From positions 4,333,509 through 4,373,508 of the forward strand of contig NZ_CP065424.1 of the NCBI RefSeq assembly GCF_017809215.1: a stretch of 40,000 nt of DNA, read 5' to 3'. A program made the translations under genes and the position numbers. The notes below the pieces were generated by a model. That model was not told where the DNA came from, did not search any database, and saw nothing but the letters and a program-made list of their open reading frames with translations. The stretch is from Heyndrickxia oleronia. Its GTDB lineage: Bacteria; Bacillota; Bacilli; Bacillales; Bacillaceae_C. Shown here piece after piece: positions 3,611-32,760 of the stretch (the first letter of the stretch is position 1; each line of letters begins with the position of its first letter).

Positions 3611-3758
3611 AACGCACCACCTAAAAGATATTAATACGTTCGGTACATAGCTGGCTACAGTTTTCAAAAGAAATAATTATTTCCTAATCTATTGTTATGC
3701 TAACCTGTCCTTTTTCGGAAAGGCTATAGAGAAAAAAGTAATCTTTTAGTCATCACTC

Positions 3759-4007
3759 TTACTTAGATTTCGTTAATCCTTCTTTTCTCAATACTTCTTT
3801 TTGCTTTTTCCCTTTGGCTGTTACATAGTTATTTTTAAACCAAGCAATTCCTGTAGCAACAAAAGTAAATACTCCAGATATAACTGCAGTTTGATCTTGT
3901 TCAGTACCTGGAATTTCATACAACCCAAATCCAACTAAAAATTGATTAATTAACGCAACGGCTAAAACGATTGTTCGAATCACTGTTCCTTTATCCATTT
4001 TTATCAT
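3759..4007 (-). CDS. Phage holin (SPP1/phi-LC3 holin family); second ATG at 3998 has the better SD
   Basis: MDKGTVIRTIVLAVALINQFL...WFKNNYVTAKG pattern with two TM segments. Position between bhlA and xhlA. Confidence 0.8.
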   Translation of the reverse strand: MIKMDKGTVIRTIVLAVALINQFLVGFGLYEIPGTEQDQTAVISGVFTFVATGIAWFKNNYVTAKGKKQKEVLRKEGLTKSK

Positions 4008-4042
4008 CCCTTCAGTTTAAAAATTAAATATAAAAAGACCAA

Positions 4043-4261
4043 TTACTTCGGTGGCAATCGGTCTTTGATATCTGATAATTGATTAATCACAACGTCATAT
4101 TTATCACTAAATTTGTTAAGTATTTCATTTTGATCTTCTATCGTCTGATAAAGTTTATCTTCTCTTGCTTTACCTTCTTTACGACTCGTATATAAAAGCC
4201 ATACAAAAAGGACCGCAAATGGTCCCTGTGTTAAAAAATATTGAGTTAAACTTGCATCCAT
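4043..4261 (-). CDS. bhlA: BhlA/UviB-family holin-like protein
   Basis: MDASLTQYFLTQGPFAVLFVWLLYTSRKEGKARE is the family signature. AGGTGGTG SD precedes the ATG at 4261. A hairpin plus T-run overlaps its 3' end. Confidence 0.8.
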   Translation of the reverse strand: MDASLTQYFLTQGPFAVLFVWLLYTSRKEGKAREDKLYQTIEDQNEILNKFSDKYDVVINQLSDIKDRLPPK

Positions 4262-4337
4262 ATGGCACCACCTACATAAATAATTAACCATGCTCGGTAC
4301 ATAGTTCACTGTAGTCATGAAATCATAAAAAATACAC

Positions 4338-4475
4338 CTATTCGGTAGGTGCTACATAATCATCTTTTGTTATTTCCTTGTATTCTGCTGCAGAAATTTC
4401 CTTCAGTTGTACTGCTAAATTTAAGTCATCCATACTTGCCCAACCAAATTTATAAGCCATTTGCCAAAAGGTCAT
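4338..4475 (-). CDS. xkdX: XkdX-family small protein (45 aa; below the ORF-track cutoff)
   Basis: Hand translation gives MTFWQMAYKFGWASMDDLNLAVQLKEISAAEYKEITKDDYVAPTE. TAATG overlap with the upstream gene. Canonical position before the holins. Confidence 0.75.
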   Translation of the reverse strand: MTFWQMAYKFGWASMDDLNLAVQLKEISAAEYKEITKDDYVAPTE

Positions 4476-4684
4476 TATGAATTACCTCCCTTTAAATTCG
4501 CAACTTCCAATTTAGTTTTAACCAGTTCTTGACCAAGTGCAGCAACCATTTCTTTTGTTTGTGCATGATCTAGTTTTTCCTGGACTAATTCAAGCCCTAT
4601 TGCATCAAGTGAAATGGGAATATTCTCTTGGTTCTCTTTTTCTTGCTTAATTATGCTTAATGGCTTTTCATTTAGGATTTTCAA
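4475..4684 (-). CDS. Hypothetical protein in the XkdW position
   Basis: ORF track. Overlaps both neighbouring genes by 1-4 nt, consistent with translational coupling. Confidence 0.55.
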   Translation of the reverse strand: MKILNEKPLSIIKQEKENQENIPISLDAIGLELVQEKLDHAQTKEMVAALGQELVKTKLEVANLKGGNS

Positions 4685-7104
4685 TCAAATGCACCCCCGA
4701 ATCCGTTAAATTTAACCTGGTCATGTGCTGTTCCTTTGTGGAGAGTGAAACGAATATTTATTCCCCATTGTTCGGCTGTTTTTTCTGTATTCGTAAAATG
4801 AAAACCTCTTTTATTCATAGCCATTCCAGTTACGTCCTCCCAGGTAGGGACTTCATCAAAGGCGTTGTTACATGCTTCAATAACAATCGTTGACCCAATC
4901 GGTAAATACACATCCGGTGTAACTAGGATTCTTGTTGCAGCTATATCCGTAACAAAAGGATTTTTTAATTCTAATTGAATCGTATCTTCGGTTCTTGTAA
5001 ATGTGTATGTTCTAGTTGATTTCGCCCCAAATGAGTCCTTTGCTTCAATTGTTAACTTATGTTCCTGTTCAAGTTGCAAAGGAATCCACATTTCAATAGG
5101 TATTTCTATTTTGTATTCTGTTCCTAACTCTGCATCAAATGTTCGGATGACTTGTCCATTAATTCTTTCTGTAATTGTTGCTGTTTGTTTCTCTGGATCA
5201 TCTACCTGGTATGTGATTGATGGTATTTCAAGTAATTCCCCTAAATCTTCATCAGTTCCAGAAATAACAGGTGGTCTGTTGTGAATCACTCGGAATATTC
5301 TTTCCTCGACTGTAGATATACCACCTTGTCCATCATCCGCCCATACCTTTAATGTGTGATCTACATTTTCAGCAAGATCATTTGATATAGGTGTGGCACC
5401 ATCGTAAACACGCTTATTGCTATACGTGATTTTTTTCGAAAACTCGATAGGTGTTGATCCGTCTGATAAACCAGATTGGATATTTCGAATCGTTCCATCG
5501 TTAATTTGCATTTTGATAATAATATTATCGTTTGCATCTGTATCCCTTGCGCTACCATCCACAAGAACCTCATTCTGTCCCTCTGTTTCAGACATAGTGA
5601 AGTTATTTGCTGTATTTAAAAGAATAGTAGGTATGACATTGTGCTGAATCTCGTAAACATCGGAATAAACATAATCAGACGACGTATTGACTGTATTTCT
5701 TGCATATACCCGGAATTGTATATTTGTCAATGTTTTATCTTTAGTTATTATTATTCCTCTTGTTAAAGCATTTATTTCAGATAGTTTCGTCCATCCGGTA
5801 GAGCTACCATCGCTATTATGTTTATATTCTAATGTATACCCTGCTAAATTAGGTGCTGACGACGGTCCCCATGTTACACTAACAGTTTCACCCGGCTTTA
5901 ATACCGTCCCTTGTGTAGGTACGGTGAATGGTCCCGGCGGTGGAATAGAATCTTTTACGCGGCTACCTCGTACCCACCAATAGCCGGATTGTTGGCCGTC
6001 TGTTGGGTATGTTCCTTCTTCGGCTATGATGCCGGATTGAATTAGTGATCCGCGAACATCTCTAAAACTTTGAAGGAAACCCGATTTGGAATATTGGTAT
6101 AAAGTTTCGGTGCCAAGCTCAAATTTTTGTATGCTATTACCGCCGTTATATACTGTATAACCAACAAATCCAGGTTGATAGTTAGCATATCTAGGAGTAC
6201 CACTTTCCTTGTATGTCCCTGTATTTGGATCAAACGAATACGACGGATACCCCCAAGCATCATTAACTGTACCTTTATCATATTGTGCGTCCAAACTCCA
6301 AGGCGGCTCAGTTCTCACCTCTTGCCTTGAAATATTATACTTACTCCAATAATACAATTTCTTTGTGACGTCGAAAACGGCGCTTTCTCGATAGGCGCTT
6401 TCGGCTCCTTCTTTATCCCTTGCTTTTACTCTAAATTTTAGTGTTTTAGCCGTTGGGATTGTATATGTGTAACTTAAATTAACTGTCGATGTTATGTTTT
6501 TCCATGTCCCTCCATCGATCTGAACGTCTAGTATATAAGTAGAAAAATTATAATCGGGATCGTTGGACATTCCCCAAGTTAATGCCCTTTGATCTCCGAT
6601 TTCTAACGTTGTACCCGATATAGGTTGCGTGAATGTTCCAGGTATTGTTGGCGCGGTGTTTGGATCTTGTGTAGTTAGTGCAATAACCATCCATTTTACG
6701 TTTTGATCTTGAAAGAAGGAAAGGCCGCCACTATTTGTTTGGTAAACACCGTTATGATTAAAACCAAAATTAATACCGTTATCCATCCATATTTCTATGA
6801 TATAATCTTCGGCACTCAATAAATAAATATCAGGGATCGGTATGTCTAAATATTGGTTTATCATGTTCGATAATGCCACTTGACCCTCTCCAAGTGATGT
6901 TCCTGTGCTCCATGTTTTAACTCTCCATTTAAGGTTTGTACCAGGTGACGAATTATAAACATAGAAACGTATGTTTTTTAGGTATCTTTTGTATGAGGGC
7001 CTAAAACGGCATATACCTAGCCAGTTATCTCCATTAGCCTCTAAAGTCCCACTAGTTGCCGGATTGTCACCGGTTGTTAATTGACTAGAAATGTAAGTCG
7101 CCAT
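4681..7104 (-). CDS. Tail fibre / receptor-binding protein with two FN3-like modules
   Basis: 807 aa, located after the baseplate genes. Two internally similar about 95-aa modules (aa ~151-246 and ~387-486) carry T/VTW...Y.L....G.W......FRV.AR patterns. Confidence 0.7.
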   Translation of the reverse strand: MATYISSQLTTGDNPATSGTLEANGDNWLGICRFRPSYKRYLKNIRFYVYNSSPGTNLKWRVKTWSTGTSLGEGQVALSNMINQYLDIPIPDIYLLSAEDYIIEIWMDNGINFGFNHNGVYQTNSGGLSFFQDQNVKWMVIALTTQDPNTAPTIPGTFTQPISGTTLEIGDQRALTWGMSNDPDYNFSTYILDVQIDGGTWKNITSTVNLSYTYTIPTAKTLKFRVKARDKEGAESAYRESAVFDVTKKLYYWSKYNISRQEVRTEPPWSLDAQYDKGTVNDAWGYPSYSFDPNTGTYKESGTPRYANYQPGFVGYTVYNGGNSIQKFELGTETLYQYSKSGFLQSFRDVRGSLIQSGIIAEEGTYPTDGQQSGYWWVRGSRVKDSIPPPGPFTVPTQGTVLKPGETVSVTWGPSSAPNLAGYTLEYKHNSDGSSTGWTKLSEINALTRGIIITKDKTLTNIQFRVYARNTVNTSSDYVYSDVYEIQHNVIPTILLNTANNFTMSETEGQNEVLVDGSARDTDANDNIIIKMQINDGTIRNIQSGLSDGSTPIEFSKKITYSNKRVYDGATPISNDLAENVDHTLKVWADDGQGGISTVEERIFRVIHNRPPVISGTDEDLGELLEIPSITYQVDDPEKQTATITERINGQVIRTFDAELGTEYKIEIPIEMWIPLQLEQEHKLTIEAKDSFGAKSTRTYTFTRTEDTIQLELKNPFVTDIAATRILVTPDVYLPIGSTIVIEACNNAFDEVPTWEDVTGMAMNKRGFHFTNTEKTAEQWGINIRFTLHKGTAHDQVKFNGFGGAFD

Positions 7105-28211: not shown

Positions 28212-28400
28212 CTATTTTCTTCTTATAGCTCCGCCTTTTCCACGCTTATATGTCGCCATATTGACTCCCATAAGGTCTTTTATCTCAGACTCCGATAACC
28301 TCTCTGATTTACGCTTACTGTTCCTCTGACGACCTTCACTAATCATTTCTTTATGCTGTTTCTCCCATTGTTTTAGTTGAACTTTAAATGATTGATTCAT
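28212..28400 (-). CDS. Hypothetical basic protein (62 aa)
   Basis: ORF track; GGGGATGAGGAA SD region. Confidence 0.5.
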   Translation of the reverse strand: MNQSFKVQLKQWEKQHKEMISEGRQRNSKRKSERLSESEIKDLMGVNMATYKRGKGGAIRRK

Positions 28401-28420: not shown

Positions 28421-28470
28421 AATAAAAAAGGACACCAAACGGCAGCATTAAATGCTGTCATTCAGTGTCC
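28421..28470 (-). terminator. Intrinsic terminator closing the three-gene operon
   Basis: Minus strand reads GGACACTGAATGACAGCATTTAATGCTGCCGTTTGGTGTCC followed by TTTTTTATTTG. No T-run on the plus strand. Confidence 0.7.
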
Positions 28471-28495
28471 TCCAGTTGTCTGGTAGGCTAGTATT

Positions 28496-29032
28496 CTATT
28501 GTTTTAAATTAGATACAATTTTAATGCCACTTGGATGTGACATCATGTCTCTATCATTTGAAACAATTATTATAGAATCTTGTAAACACAAATTAATAAA
28601 ATATTCATCATTAAAGTCATAGCTACTATTTTTTAATACTTCATCTATTTTAATATTAGAAAATTTATCATCAATTTTTTCAGCATGTTTGAATATTCTA
28701 TGTTTAATAATCATTCTCAAATTTGAAACTAAATCAATAAAATCTTCGCTTGCTCGAAAATCACGCTTGTAGTTAAGTTCTGGATGAGTTTGTTTTGCAA
28801 TATGGTACTCTAGTTTACAATACGTATTGAAGAACTCCGAAATTTGCATAGCAGTTGTATATATTTTTGCATTAGAATTTAAGATTTTTTCGAAGAAAAC
28901 ATTATATTTTTCAACAACAGATTGATTATAATTTCCAATACTACAATACAAATACATCCAAATATTAGTATCTAAAAAAAATTTGTCATCCTTAGAAGGT
29001 GAAAATTGTTCTATATGATATACTTCACTCAT
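28496..29032 (-). CDS. PIN-domain nuclease-like protein (178 aa)
   Basis: Acidic quartet in PIN order: FFLDTNIW, MQISEF, YDFNDEYF, IVSNDRDM. 8-nt overlap with the upstream gene. Confidence 0.7.
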   Translation of the reverse strand: MSEVYHIEQFSPSKDDKFFLDTNIWMYLYCSIGNYNQSVVEKYNVFFEKILNSNAKIYTTAMQISEFFNTYCKLEYHIAKQTHPELNYKRDFRASEDFIDLVSNLRMIIKHRIFKHAEKIDDKFSNIKIDEVLKNSSYDFNDEYFINLCLQDSIIIVSNDRDMMSHPSGIKIVSNLKQ

Positions 29033-29357
29033 TTTCTAATACCTCATCAATCTCACTGATGTTTTTTATATCAACTTTTGCCCTTGTTATAACTTTTTTC
29101 AATAAATATTTATCTAAATCATCCAGATCAATGATTGAAAGATATTTATTTAATTCTTCTGATGAAAAATTATTATAAAGATTCCCAATTGCCTTGTTTA
29201 AAAAAGCTGTTGTTGTGTCTTCCACATCCGAAAAGCTAAGATAAAATGGCTTTTTTGTACTTAATTCATTTACGATGAATTTGTATAAAGTCTCCCCCTT
29301 TTCTGGAGAGACTGCAATTCTTGAATTGATAATATCTTTGACATAAATTTTATTCAT
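29025..29357 (-). CDS. STAS-like (DUF4325-type) small protein, 110 aa from ATG at 29357
   Basis: FYLSFSDVEDTTTAFLNKAIGNL matches the DUF4325/STAS beta3-alpha2 pattern. GGAGGA lies 7 nt before the ATG at 29357; the track start at 29372 is a TTG. Confidence 0.6.
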   Translation of the reverse strand: MNKIYVKDIINSRIAVSPEKGETLYKFIVNELSTKKPFYLSFSDVEDTTTAFLNKAIGNLYNNFSSEELNKYLSIIDLDDLDKYLLKKVITRAKVDIKNISEIDEVLENE

Positions 29358-29375
29358 GTAATATTCCTCCAATTA

Positions 29376-30251
29376 TTAAAACAGAATATCATTTTGCCAA
29401 GTGAAAGTGTTTTCTAATTTAGAAATAATATTTACAACAGTTCCAGGAAAATAAAAATCAAGATTTCTTTGATGTATTAACCCCTCATTATTTTCCCAAT
29501 ACCCATTACCAGAAATAATTTGAAACACACCATTATTTTCTGTTAAAAATTCCTCAATAATATGTAAACCAATTCCACCAGCTTCAGTATGAACATTTGT
29601 ATGCTCTTTAGTTGTATTTCCATATTTTGTAGCCCACTTAATTGCTGTTGAATCAGAGATTTGCTTGTCGCATAACTTTTCTCTAACATTTGTACCAATA
29701 GTTCTACCTAAGTCAGTGATTGTAAAAGCTACCTTTTTATTCATATGATAATATTGCCCACAGGTATAAACTTTATCACTTTTAGCATGAAGTTGAACAT
29801 TAATAAAAATCTCATTTAAACTCAACTTAAAGCTTTTCATCACAGGATTTGATAAATCTAATCTTATCTTAGGTATTACATGATTACTAACATAATTTGA
29901 GAAATCATCACTATCTTGTACTGAAAAGACTTCATATTTAATTGTAGAATCATAGGTATCATCAATTCTACCCAATTGATATCTTTCATAAAACCCATTT
30001 TTCTTAAATATTTTTTGAATTGAATTTGTTATGTTACTTAGAATAACTCTACACCCATTATATAGCTTTAATTCAAGCCAAGCACCTAAAGTGGATGCGA
30101 GATTTGCCTCAAACCATCTGGTGCTTTTAAATTCTAATTCGATATCTACATTTATTAAACCTTCCGTATTTGTAAATAAACTTGATAAAAAAGTGAATCC
30201 CAAAAAGTCATTCTCGACTTTCTTTGGTATATTGATAATGAATCTATCCAT
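29376..30251 (-). CDS. GHKL (HATPase_c) ATPase/kinase-like protein of the SpoIIAB/RsbW type with an unassigned ~130-aa N-terminal region
   Basis: N-box LNEIFINVQLHA (ExxxNxxxH), G1-like ITDLGRTIG, G2-like EAGGIGLHIIEEF, in the canonical order. Confidence 0.65.
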   Translation of the reverse strand: MDRFIINIPKKVENDFLGFTFLSSLFTNTEGLINVDIELEFKSTRWFEANLASTLGAWLELKLYNGCRVILSNITNSIQKIFKKNGFYERYQLGRIDDTYDSTIKYEVFSVQDSDDFSNYVSNHVIPKIRLDLSNPVMKSFKLSLNEIFINVQLHAKSDKVYTCGQYYHMNKKVAFTITDLGRTIGTNVREKLCDKQISDSTAIKWATKYGNTTKEHTNVHTEAGGIGLHIIEEFLTENNGVFQIISGNGYWENNEGLIHQRNLDFYFPGTVVNIISKLENTFTWQNDILF

Positions 30252-30290: not shown

Positions 30291-30491
30291 TCAAAACTCT
30301 TCCCCCTCGTCCCACTTTACACGCTTAATCTTGCCTTGATGTGTAACAATTTTCGTCTCACCATATTCAGGTAAAGGAGTCACTTTAGCTTTTCCATCAC
30401 ATACCACTATGGCAAAACTTCCCTTTAGTTCCATTATATCAACTTCTAGTCTCATAGTACTAGGATTAATTTCTATATCTTTTAGTCTCAC
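30291..30491 (-). CDS. Hypothetical small phage protein (GTG start; possibly DUF3954-like)
   Basis: TAGGAGGGG SD 5 nt upstream of the GTG. The family guess is from memory only. Confidence 0.5.
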   Translation of the reverse strand: MRLKDIEINPSTMRLEVDIMELKGSFAIVVCDGKAKVTPLPEYGETKIVTHQGKIKRVKWDEGEEF

Positions 30492-30525: not shown

Positions 30526-30560
30526 GACGGGAGTGATCCTGTCTTTTTTTATTCTTTTTT
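30526..30560 (+). terminator. Plus-strand intrinsic terminator with no plus-strand gene upstream
   Basis: GACGGGA-GTGA-TCCTGTC followed by TTTTTTTATTCTTTTTT. Confidence 0.55.
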
Positions 30561-30602: not shown

Positions 30603-30830
30603 GTGTTATATTTGAACCTATTTGAAAATGTAGAACTAAATACTATGCAAATTATTATTCCGCTAGTTCTTCTAATTCTTTGTATGGTTTCAATTTCATT
30701 AATATATTGGTTAGTTTTTAGATGGCTACCAAAACTGATATTTAATTTTTTATTAGGTCCTATTGCTTTGCTTGGTGCTTACATTTGGGCATTTCCAATG
30801 AATATGGGTTTCTATGAATTTTTTAAGTAG
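30603..30830 (+). CDS. Small membrane protein (2 TM; GTG start, or internal ATG)
   Basis: ORF track; hydrophobic segments IIIPLVLLILCMVSISLIYWLVF and LLGPIALLGAYIWAF. Confidence 0.5.
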   Translation: MLYLNLFENVELNTMQIIIPLVLLILCMVSISLIYWLVFRWLPKLIFNFLLGPIALLGAYIWAFPMNMGFYEFFK

Positions 30831-30858
30831 GCATCTTAGATAGATGCCTTTAAAATTT
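30830..30858 (+). terminator. Terminator after the membrane protein gene
   Basis: GGCATCT-TAGAT-AGATGCC followed by TTTAAAATTT. Confidence 0.5.
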
Positions 30859-30979
30859 CAAACAACTTGTCCAATTAAATTTGGCAAGTATGAATTTCCT
30901 TCAACAATATCCCTCATCAACTTCCATTTACCATCAAAATATGTCATAATATTACAAAATAATAGTTTTTTAGAAAGAG

Positions 30980-31165
30980 TTGATTACAGTGACTAATAAC
31001 CTAGAAAAAAGGGAATTATCGAACCGTATCGACCATCTAAGAGAAAACCTAATTACTGTTGGTACCCAAAAAGGGCTTAACCATCCAGAAACTATTCAAA
31101 AAAGCCAAGAGTTAGATACCTTAATACTTAAGTATCAATTTTTGATGATTCGCAAAGATAAATAA
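30980..31165 (+). CDS. Spo0E-family aspartyl-phosphate phosphatase-like protein
   Basis: ETIQKSQELDTLILKY matches the SQELDxLI signature of Spo0E/YnzD/YisI; small helical protein of the right length. Confidence 0.8.
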   Translation: MITVTNNLEKRELSNRIDHLRENLITVGTQKGLNHPETIQKSQELDTLILKYQFLMIRKDK

Positions 31166-31171
31166 TTCCTT

Positions 31172-31288
31172 TTAATCGTTAACCTCTACTGCTTCCATAT
31201 ATTTTCCGCATTCAGGACACTTTATTTTCGGTATGACTTCAAATGCAATTTCCAATTGATCACATTCATTGCAAATATACTCGATCAT
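31172..31288 (-). CDS. 38-aa zinc-ribbon protein (CxxC-16-CxxC), below the track cutoff
   Basis: Hand translation gives MIEYICNECDQLEIAFEVIPKIKCPECGKYMEAVEVND. AAGGTAGG lies 7 nt upstream. Confidence 0.4.
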   Translation of the reverse strand: MIEYICNECDQLEIAFEVIPKIKCPECGKYMEAVEVND

Positions 31289-31385
31289 AACTCAACCTAC
31301 CTTGTGTTTTTAATATCTATTTAGAGGAAATAATTAAATTTTACTTAATAAGGAAATGTTATAATTTTCTTAAGGTGGTGATATT

Positions 31386-31574
31386 TTGAATAAACCAAAT
31401 TTATCAACTATTTTTTTGATTATTTTCATTGTTTCTCTTGCATTTTTTGTTTTACTCTATCTCTGTAAAGTACATCTCAATGCTGAAATAGTTATAATTA
31501 TAATTTTATTACTTATAATACTTGGATTACTTATAGGTATTTACACCTTGCTATTATCTAAGGATGAAAAATAA
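31386..31574 (+). CDS. Small 2-TM hydrophobic protein (TTG start)
   Basis: AAGGTGGTG SD about 6 nt upstream of the TTG; sequence is almost entirely I/L/F. Confidence 0.5.
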   Translation: MNKPNLSTIFLIIFIVSLAFFVLLYLCKVHLNAEIVIIIILLLIILGLLIGIYTLLLSKDEK

Positions 31575-31724
31575 TTGTTTGTACTTTCCATCCTCTTCTC
31601 CTCCTATCATCTAAGTTGATTTAGTAAAAAATAACCATTTTATCTGAATATACAGAAATATATTTTTATTACTAAATTTTTCTGTTAATATATTTTCAGA
31701 TTCAAATAAAGTGAGGTGAAAAAT

Positions 31725-31862
31725 ATGAAAAAAATGCTTATAAGGCTTGGGTTGATAACCGCCTTAATTTTTACCGTTTCAACCTCTGTGTCAGCCGCAA
31801 CAATTGAGCCTCAAGGATGCTCTTTAATGGGCCCACCAAGATGGTGTGAAGGTGCTCAATAA
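31725..31862 (+). CDS. 45-aa secreted pre-peptide; predicted mature ATIEPQGCSLMGPPRWCEGAQ
   Basis: GAGGTG SD 6 nt upstream. Sec-type signal MKKMLIRLGLITALIFTVSTSVSA with a VSA-A site. Two Cys residues are 8 residues apart. Below the track cutoff. Confidence 0.55.
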   Translation: MKKMLIRLGLITALIFTVSTSVSAATIEPQGCSLMGPPRWCEGAQ

Positions 31863-31953: not shown

Positions 31954-32760
31954 CTAAAACAACGTTTGCTGATAATACCCTGTTTCTGCTGCTACTGGAT
32001 TTATCCATAAAACTTCAGTACGTTTAGAACCAGTTTCTGCATAAGCTTCAAATGTTTCCTTGTGCCAATCATTCAAAAAGTGATTATATAAATCATTATC
32101 ATAACCACTTAACAGTACTGGTCCGGAATGTCTTTTTAAGCATCCAATTAAAATAGCATGATCCTCATCGCTAAATTCATGGGCATACATTCTCTTGCTC
32201 CTGGTTCTTAATACATAAGGTGGATCTGCATATATAAGTACTTCTGGTCTGTTATATCTATCTATTAGTTTACTAGCATCTTGATGTTCAATTTGAACAT
32301 TTTTTAATCGATCAGCTACGCTCAATATTTTTTCAGGGAGCTTGTTCCATTCCTTTGCTTTATGATGATTGAGTGGATTGATGTTACTTCTCCATCCAGT
32401 TCGATCACTTGTTTTTGCCCCAATTGCTTGCCCACACCTAACTAAAAATACTCGAGCCCGTTCAATTTCATCCTCTGGATTTGCTTCAAAAGATTTATAG
32501 TATTCCTCTCTAGATAGTGGTGTCCAATATACCTTTTCAGCTAACTTTTCCGGATAATCCCTTATTACTTTAAAAAGATTTATTATGTTACTATCAATAT
32601 CATTAATGGTTTCTAGCAATGATGTTTCTTTTCTAAAAAACACTGCTCCGGATCCAAAGAACGGCTCAAGGTATGTTTTATGCTCCGGCATGTGACTAAT
32701 AATCCAATCAGCCATACTCCATTTGCTACCTGGATAATGCAAGATTCTTGGTATGGCCAT
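31954..32760 (-). CDS. N6-adenine DNA methyltransferase, D12/Dam class (orphan)
   Basis: YPGSK, EPFFGSGAVFF (motif I) and IYADPPY (motif IV) in Dam order. No nuclease partner is adjacent. Confidence 0.9.
   Translation of the reverse strand: MAIPRILHYPGSKWSMADWIISHMPEHKTYLEPFFGSGAVFFRKETSLLETINDIDSNIINLFKVIRDYPEKLAEKVYWTPLSREEYYKSFEANPEDEIERARVFLVRCGQAIGAKTSDRTGWRSNINPLNHHKAKEWNKLPEKILSVADRLKNVQIEHQDASKLIDRYNRPEVLIYADPPYVLRTRSKRMYAHEFSDEDHAILIGCLKRHSGPVLLSGYDNDLYNHFLNDWHKETFEAYAETGSKRTEVLWINPVAAETGYYQQTLF

Follow-up and report, generated by a model that had tools for sequence, protein, structure and literature searches.

Introduction

Which system is encoded by three tightly packed genes on the minus strand of a Heyndrickxia oleronia prophage, and does it protect the cell or serve the phage that carries it? 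The genes lie in a stretch of 40,000 nucleotides (nt) of the contig NZ_CP065424.1 (assembly GCF_017809215.1, positions 4,333,509 to 4,373,508), hereafter called the window. The three open reading frames (ORFs), here gene 1, gene 2 and gene 3 in 5′ to 3′ order, code for proteins of 291, 110 and 178 amino acids (aa). An earlier interpretation made from the letters of the DNA, the sequence-only reading, had proposed that a kinase and a STAS-like protein form a switch, which gates a PIN toxin and acts as a phosphorylation-regulated toxin-antitoxin or anti-phage module, and it had matched this gene composition to no named system. We find that a Bacillaceae prophage carries, as accessory cargo, what is very probably an intact vapKSC operon: a toxin-antitoxin system that resembles type II, is gated by a kinase and counters phages. 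Judged by sequence comparison, the membership of the three proteins in the VapKSC family is close to certain. The proposed switch is essentially the published vapKSC model, to whose three components genes 1 to 3 are homologous; the lack of a named match, on the other hand, has been overtaken, as vapKSC was published in 2026 (PMC13373217). A match to an already described system had been listed beforehand as speaking against the claim, and the novelty of the locus falls with it. From the raw sequence alone, both the build and the working principle of an actual kinase-gated toxin-antitoxin defence system had been read correctly.

The vapKSC system was described by Chambers, Rani, Min, Villa and Corbett (bioRxiv February 2026, EMBO J 2026; PMC13373217) for the prototype Escherichia sp. 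E4736, in a paper that covers the CapK/CapS regulators and the related three-gene vapKSC operon. VapK consists of a STAS domain and a GHKL kinase domain and VapC is a PIN toxin; VapK is a homologue of CapK, and VapS of CapS. The crystal structure of the VapS2-VapC2 complex was solved at 3.4 Å (PDB 9Z7O), and VapS leaves the active-site Mg2+ of VapC in place (PMC13373217). Escherichia VapC is toxic and loses its toxicity in the D28A variant; VapS neutralises VapC, which is achieved neither by VapS S48E nor by VapS with a C-terminal deletion. The operon protects against phage Bas42 by about 2 logs, an effect that each of the substitutions D28A, S48A and VapK F54A abolishes (PMC13373217). According to the published model, VapS sequesters VapC until VapK, activated by single-stranded DNA (ssDNA) or DNA damage, phosphorylates VapS, thereby freeing VapC. 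Dataset EV3 of the same paper lists Heyndrickxia oleronia (IMG IDs 8064013059, 8064013058 and 8064013057) as well as Domibacillus mangrovi SAOS 44 and Ureibacillus thermosphaericus DSM 10633 (PMC13373217), the latter two being loci L004 and L005 of the comparison presented here. The system is already known, H. oleronia is catalogued at species level, and the locus represents no new kind of system.

A predicted STAS-like antitoxin and PIN toxin

Gene 2, now vapS, was assigned to the STAS-like Pfam family DUF4325 with E=9.8e-14, beyond the gathering score, as the pattern seen in the raw sequence had indicated. In a phmmer search of the PDB, its product matched 9z7o_A, annotated 'Escherichia VapS', with E=2.5e-10, residues 3-109 being placed onto chain residues 20-128; nothing else was found below E=1. 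The protein consists of a STAS-like domain followed by a short C-terminal helical region, and no DNA-binding family was present among its Pfam matches. Threonine 50 (T50), the predicted phospho-acceptor, pairs with chain residue S66 of 9z7o_A, which is native S48 after subtraction of the 18-residue tag. The acceptor had previously been placed within a run of three threonines. This is supported for T50: 16 of 16 family members have Ser or Thr in its alignment column, while the columns of T48 and T49 vary.

Gene 3, now vapC, reached 29.2 bits against the Pfam family PIN, for which the gathering score is 23.6, and its single sequence matched 9z7o_C, 'Escherichia VapC', with E=1.8e-6 in phmmer. 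Because 9z7o_C was the sole PDB match of the gene 3 family profile at E<=0.01 (E=1.3e-11, residues 2-169), gene 3 is, by sequence comparison, closer to the VapC of Escherichia vapKSC than to any canonical VapC. The AlphaFold2 (AF2) model of the protein has a mean predicted local distance difference test score (pLDDT) of 92.2, and Foldseek returned VapC and PIN folds for it. Seven acidic residues are invariant in the family (D21, E66, D122, D139, D142, D160 and D162), which agrees with the acidic PIN residues read from the sequence before, and D21 is aligned with the catalytic D28 of Escherichia VapC. A partial VapC annotated from Heyndrickxia oleronia is 100% identical to gene 3. The Foldseek PDB library covers releases up to 2026-04-08, and 9Z7O was not among its matches; because Foldseek did not return this entry, the link of the two proteins to the VapS/VapC structure rests on the sequence and profile matches.

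The predicted kinase VapK

Gene 1, now vapK, was compared with Escherichia VapK using a query sequence transcribed from the authors' AlphaFold 3 model file. BLASTP aligned the two proteins with E=2e-26 and 27% identity across 271 aa, and hhalign of the gene 1 family profile with Escherichia VapK gave a probability of 99.9% and E=4.5e-35. Gene 1 also matched phrog_3364, a family whose function is unassigned in PHROGs, with E=5.7e-36.

The AF2 model of VapK, which was built on a 41-sequence alignment (pLDDT 88.7, predicted template modelling (TM) score 0.88), contains two domains. The N-terminal approximately 130 residues, which had been labelled unassigned in the sequence-only reading, were identified as a STAS domain by Foldseek, with matches to RsbV (6m36_B; TM-score 0.72, target-normalised, root mean square deviation 1.9 Å), SpoIIAA (1tid_B) and TM1442 (1vc1_A). 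No helix-turn-helix (HTH) was found in gene 1, as the AF2 model opens with a STAS β-strand at residue 3. The C-terminal domain matched SpoIIAB (1l0o_A, E=1.3e-5; 1tid_C) and, furthermore, UsfX, CheA P4, DesK and GyrB. The Pfam family HATPase_c_2 was detected on gene 1 below threshold (E=0.16); despite this weak score, the GHKL fold is confirmed by the modelled structure. Hence all three folds that had been named from the raw sequence found backing, DUF4325 and PIN past their gathering scores and GHKL via the model.

The GHKL motifs recognised earlier fall onto invariant columns of the family. In a 20-sequence alignment, the N-box residues E147, N151 and H155, the G1-like residues D180 and G182 and the G2 residues G225, G226, G228 and L229 are invariant, and all of them except D180 remain so in the 41-sequence alignment; a GNTTK motif is also among the invariant residues of the domain. 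With the N-box Asn and the G1 and G2 boxes retained, the active site of the GHKL domain is, as far as conservation can indicate, intact. W46 of the STAS domain is conserved in at least 90% of the sequences. This residue (R-W-F-E-A-N) pairs with F54 of Escherichia VapK (R-F-L-R-P-N), a putative ssDNA-binding residue equivalent to W68 of CapK. Directly observed at this locus are the homology of the three proteins with those of the prototype, the retention of every key residue and the conserved synteny.

Operon organisation and conservation

The compact layout described in the sequence-only reading, with an 18-nt gap holding a Shine-Dalgarno sequence, an 8-nt overlap and a strong terminator, was confirmed in every part by the sequence and by RNA folding (Table 1). 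The ATG start of vapS is supported by homologues that begin at the same place, and the overlap of vapS and vapC reads ATGAGTGA. With a minimum free energy of -31.7 kcal/mol, the terminator hairpin is more stable than each of 200 shuffled sequences (z=-5.0). A simple consensus terminator scanner overlooked it because the hairpin contains an internal mismatch.

Table 1. Coordinates of the vapKSC genes, their predicted domains and sites, and adjacent features in the window
Feature	Position	Strand	Description
vapK (gene 1)	29376..30251	-	291 aa, ORF read from the sequence
Predicted STAS domain of VapK	29868..30251	-	residues ~1-128, includes W46 in the WFEAN motif
Predicted GHKL (Bergerat-fold) kinase domain of VapK	29412..29849	-	residues ~135-280
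vapK-vapS gap	29358..29375	-	18 nt, taattGGAGGaatattac; holds the GGAGG Shine-Dalgarno sequence for vapS, read directly
vapS (gene 2)	29025..29357	-	110 aa counted from the ATG
Codon for VapS T50	29208..29210	-	predicted phospho-acceptor, aligns with VapS S48
vapC (gene 3)	28496..29032	-	178 aa; start overlaps vapS by 8 nt
Rho-independent terminator ending the operon	28422..28468	-	37-nt imperfect hairpin, then U-run UUUUUUAUUU
xtrA-like gene	30291..30491	-	39 nt upstream of vapK; Pfam PBSX_XtrA E=2.8e-25
62-aa phrog_3928 gene (orf62)	28212-28400		downstream neighbour of vapKSC

In a collection of 5.8 billion proteins, 96 homologues of gene 1 and 24 of gene 3 were found, many of them on common contigs. 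Loci from genomes, viral contigs and phage records were then compared (23 fetched, 21 distinct); they come from Bacillota, Bacteroidota, WOR-3 and Zhuqueibacterota. The order K-S-C is kept in 18 of the 21 distinct loci, so that the trio is conserved as a unit elsewhere. Two of the remaining three loci are cut by contig ends, and the third, in Burkholderia phage vB_E188, has the first two genes only. Because gene 1 has 96 and gene 3 has 24 homologues and the trio is syntenic across phyla, the three genes are, on this comparative evidence, genuine and not chance ORFs. Nearly all loci share the overlap of gene 2 with gene 3, which points to translational coupling of vapS and vapC.

The kinase family extends well beyond these loci. 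A search of 1.84 billion cluster representatives (clusters at 50% identity) with the VapK profile gave about 830 matches at E<=1e-30, a number that rises to 5,227 at E<=1e-3, although CapK and further GHKL proteins are probably among the weaker ones. This suggests a VapK family much larger than the 289 vapKSC instances that have been published (PMC13373217). The top match among the cluster representatives was a protein of 568 aa (P0121; E=3e-114), which aligns in two stretches and has double the usual length; this may reflect a VapK tandem or fusion, or else an error in gene calling.

Proposed mechanism and points against it

Kinase activity, an ssDNA trigger, toxicity and phage defence at this locus are inferred by homology to the prototype. 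In the proposed chain of events, VapC, a PIN nuclease and presumably an RNase, would be held inactive inside a VapS2-VapC2 complex, in which the STAS domain of VapS touches VapC and the C-terminal helix of VapS extends toward the active site. VapK would detect ssDNA arising from DNA damage or phage replication at the interface of its STAS and GHKL domains, around W46, and would then phosphorylate VapS at T50. As T50 is predicted to be sited in the VapS-VapC interface, its phosphorylation would release VapC, and free VapC would lead to cell arrest and block phage production. By analogy with the prototype, we consider this complete chain, from sequestration by VapS through ssDNA-activated VapK and phosphorylation of T50 to release of VapC, to be likely, with clearly less assurance than the family assignment. 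The partner-switching frame of the sequence-only reading needs to be adjusted accordingly: VapS is no classical antagonist, it is an antitoxin that binds VapC directly, and the proposed trigger is ssDNA or DNA damage.

Several points weigh against this interpretation of the locus. Experiments are confined to the Escherichia prototype, this locus and the other Gram-positive members being known from sequence alone, and the identity to the Escherichia proteins is just about 27-30%. Even for the prototype, VapK was insoluble and phosphorylation of VapS went undetected, so that kinase activity and activation by ssDNA were not directly demonstrated; this step was deduced from the analogy with CapK, an AlphaFold 3 model and the F54A phenotype (PMC13373217). 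RNA as the substrate of VapC is presumed only. A promoter scan revealed no convincing sigma-A promoter in the 39-nt gap between xtrA and vapK or in the 110-nt region upstream of xtrA; xtrA and vapK may be co-transcribed. PADLOC-DB v2.0.0 and NCBIfam gave zero matches for all three proteins, so that independent confirmation by these databases is missing and the PADLOC check for an existing name, suggested beforehand, returned nothing; this absence carries no weight because the libraries predate or do not cover the 2026 description. Finally, a toxin triggered by DNA damage raises the question of self-targeting when it resides in a prophage that may itself be damage-inducible.

Relation to known kinase, STAS and toxin-antitoxin systems

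The Escherichia VapKSC system shares with the H. oleronia locus the gene order K-S-C and the tight coupling of the genes, a VapK made of STAS and GHKL domains without an HTH, and a VapS made of a STAS domain plus a brief C-terminal part with a Ser/Thr acceptor (S48 there, T50 here). Both systems furthermore have a PIN-type VapC with the conserved Asp (D28 there, D21 here) and an aromatic residue at the putative ssDNA site (F54 there, W46 here). They differ in the nature of two residues, as the acceptor is Ser in Escherichia and Thr here, and the aromatic residue is Phe in Escherichia and Trp here, as it is in CapK. Moreover, the H. oleronia locus belongs to a Gram-positive host, in which a prophage harbours it in the interval from xtrA to the late regulator.

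CapK is a DNA-damage-activated kinase, which acts together with the STAS-winged HTH (wHTH) repressor CapS upstream of the cyclic oligonucleotide-based anti-phage signalling system (CBASS), Bub and other immune operons (PMC13373217). By analogy, the locus shares with this pair a homologous STAS and GHKL kinase core, a STAS substrate that would be phosphorylated on a conserved Ser/Thr, and putative ssDNA sensing via a conserved Trp (W68 in CapK, W46 in gene 1). Given this kinship of VapK and VapS with CapK and CapS (PMC13373217), and with the operon lying immediately upstream of the late-gene regulator of the prophage, the kinase could be imagined to phosphorylate a STAS repressor, thereby de-repressing the late regulator, with the PIN gene as unrelated cargo. 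We regard such a controller as very improbable. The N-terminal HTH of CapK and the C-terminal DNA-binding wHTH of CapS are both absent from genes 1 and 2, and gene 2, with just 110 aa, aligns with VapS from end to end. In 18 of 21 loci the PIN gene is conserved together with gene 2, to which its translation is apparently coupled, and a strong terminator stands between the operon and the downstream genes. While the output of CapK-CapS is transcriptional de-repression, the predicted output of VapKSC is the release of a toxin.

The closest structures released up to 8 April 2026 are the GHKL Ser/Thr kinases and STAS proteins of the SpoIIAB-SpoIIAA and RsbW-RsbV pairs, whose acceptor residue is at the equivalent position of the STAS domain. 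The top structural matches were SpoIIAB with sigma-F and RsbW with RsbV, and a sigma- or GerE-like HTH regulator is encoded 360 nt downstream, which is what a partner switch acting on a sigma-like late regulator of the phage would look like. Such a switch is nevertheless hardly credible here. The trio is conserved in many genomes that lack a regulator of this kind nearby, and neither a sigma factor nor a PP2C phosphatase gene is present in the operon or among the ten neighbouring genes scanned. Unlike SpoIIAB and RsbW, VapK carries its own fused STAS domain, and in the solved VapS-VapC complex the partner of the STAS protein is the PIN toxin (PMC13373217). The proposed sequestration is also of another type: in VapKSC the STAS protein would hold a nuclease, whereas in the SpoIIAB and RsbW systems it is the kinase that sequesters the sigma factor.

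Canonical VapBC systems resemble the vapS-vapC pair in having a VapC-type PIN toxin and a small upstream antitoxin gene, which overlaps the toxin gene. An assignment to this class was rejected, since gene 2 is a STAS-like DUF4325 protein without a DNA-binding domain, whereas VapB is a DNA-binding protein of the AbrB, ribbon-helix-helix (RHH), MerR or Phd type. Furthermore, VapC has 178 aa and 6-7 conserved acidic residues here, compared with about 130 aa in canonical systems, and release of the toxin is expected to occur by phosphorylation of the antitoxin instead of its proteolysis.

An earlier trace of the same gene pair can be found in the study of Matelska et al. 2017 (Nucleic Acids Research (NAR) 45:6995, PMC5499597), in which a PIN.4 group was noted to be 'transcriptionally coupled to DUF4325'. 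This coupling fits gene 3 with gene 2, gene 3 being likened to the group by its description only; the remark is a bioinformatic note, in which no kinase gene is mentioned and no mechanism is proposed (PMC5499597). Neither the link to DUF4325 nor the carriage of vapKSC by prophages is discussed by Chambers et al. (PMC13373217). Both PHROG 3364 and Pfam DUF4325 can now receive a function.

Prophage context

The window is a prophage or phage genome. Upstream of vapKSC, it encodes RecT, a DnaB_2 replication protein, a D12 adenine methylase and XtrA; downstream follow the phrog_3928 gene orf62, an HTH regulator of 151 aa (phrog_1058/phrog_36), the small and large terminase subunits and structural genes. 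The slot between the early genes and the late regulator, to which the operon had been assigned from the raw sequence, is thereby borne out. With respect to composition, the claim that the block is more AT-rich than its flanks was right for one side: the GC content is 0.28-0.30 across 28-30 kb and 0.33-0.46 in the structural modules, but the adjoining accessory region at 30-34 kb is similarly AT-rich, and the vapKSC block is no outlier there.

Related operons occupy the same slot in two Bacillus prophages (L018 and L019). XtrA is encoded directly upstream of vapK also in Domibacillus and Ureibacillus, and a homologue of orf62 lies directly downstream in three loci; taken by locus, xtrA and/or phrog_3928 recur as flanks at L004/L021, L005/L017, L018 and L019. 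These recurring flanks suggest that the interval between xtrA and orf62 is a conserved insertion slot, and the modestly new result is that Bacillaceae vapKSC is typically prophage cargo, often in this recurring slot. In a B. subtilis locus (L020), the operon follows a holin/amidase lysis cassette, and it was also found on three IMG/VR viral contigs (L015-L017) and in Streptococcus phage Javan172 (L001). Carriage is not restricted to phages, as one operon (L022) has Kiwa and SIR2 genes as neighbours in a defence island and another (L023) lies in plain chromosome. Caldibacillus phage CBP1, the nearest phage with a homologue of the late regulator (58% identity), has no vapKSC upstream of that regulator; this fits accessory cargo, but a single genome is little proof. 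A megablast search of the locus against 50,697 phage records gave no match, and the same search with positions 20-40 kb of the window recovered only a 50-bp stretch of RecT; there is no close sequenced relative of the host prophage within this collection.

The prophage location raises the question whether the operon works for the phage, either as an addiction or stabilisation module or in a timed shut-off of the host. Upon induction, ssDNA produced by the prophage's own replication and by RecT would then activate VapK, and VapC would degrade host RNA for the benefit of the phage or kill cells that lose the prophage or do not complete its programme. The operon is indeed located inside a phage genome on the strand of the lytic genes, right after xtrA and before the late regulator, in a slot that is occupied likewise in other Bacillaceae prophages; most loci of the gene 1 clade at >=43% identity are phage-associated, the prophage encodes RecT, and no promoter was detected between xtrA and vapK. 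Nevertheless, we consider a prophage-serving role unlikely, as the operon is also found in defence islands and in plain chromosome without phage genes, one copy being situated beside KwaA/KwaB and SIR2. Of the published instances, 36% have defence genes nearby, and the system confers phage protection (PMC13373217). The strong terminator and the AT-rich composition are, moreover, typical of a moron expressed in the lysogen. The reading as a toxin-antitoxin system that acts against phage and is carried by the prophage is therefore preferred.

Even so, the coexistence of a putatively damage-triggered toxin with prophage induction is a question that Bacillaceae prophage carriage brings up. It is a rather doubtful but conceivable extension that the Bacillaceae clade (gene 1 identity at least 43%), mostly prophage cargo and often located in the slot between xtrA and orf62 or the late regulator, is subject to an undescribed layer of control, since its toxin, with ssDNA or DNA damage as the proposed trigger, would reside in an element that encodes RecT and may itself be damage-inducible. 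If this were true, the phage might encode a means of avoiding self-activation, or the operon might have been co-opted as a device for induction-coupled host shut-off or superinfection exclusion; vapKSC would in these prophages be more than a plain abortive infection system of the host.

Further observations in phage records and in the window

Two phage records contain related genes. In Streptococcus phage Javan172 (L001, MK448860.1), an unannotated VapC-like ORF of 176 aa at 5263-5793 (E ~1e-14 against gene 3) completes a vapKSC operon adjoining the integrase gene; the record annotates a hypothetical coding sequence of 40 aa at 5462-5581 instead. Burkholderia phage vB_E188 (L002, PQ789830.1) has, at 3734-4941, a gene that resembles vapK (E=3e-12) and another that weakly resembles vapS (E=1e-4), but no PIN gene; on one side the two are flanked by the integrase gene and on the other by a BrnT/BrnA toxin-antitoxin pair. 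In Francisella phage KIRK, genes for a hypothetical protein of 293 aa and a DUF4325 protein of 112 aa are similarly situated between those for CI and integrase (PMC7924643). Such two-gene versions may rely on a different effector or have a regulatory role.

Within the window, four small ORFs at 30603-31862 on the plus strand run antiparallel to all phage genes, between xtrA and the methylase gene, and have a GC content of about 0.31. One of them, at 30980-31165 (+), encodes a Spo0E-like aspartyl-phosphate phosphatase (Pfam SpoOE-like, E=1.5e-15), and two or three of the others (30603-30830, 31386-31574 and 31716-31862) encode small hydrophobic or secreted peptides. The block may be a lysogen-expressed moron that interferes with sporulation of the host. 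The methylase gene at 31954-32760 on the minus strand codes for an orphan D12-class N6-adenine DNA methyltransferase (E=5.7e-32), next to which no restriction gene was noticed; related Bacillus prophages have different methylases at this position. A GC-rich inverted repeat at 30526-30543, within the 110 nt that separate xtrA from the divergent block, is followed by a T-run on the plus strand (GACGGGAGTGATCCTGTC TTTTTTTATT). No plus-strand gene ends there, and the repeat could be an operator, a terminator of antisense transcription or a chance occurrence.

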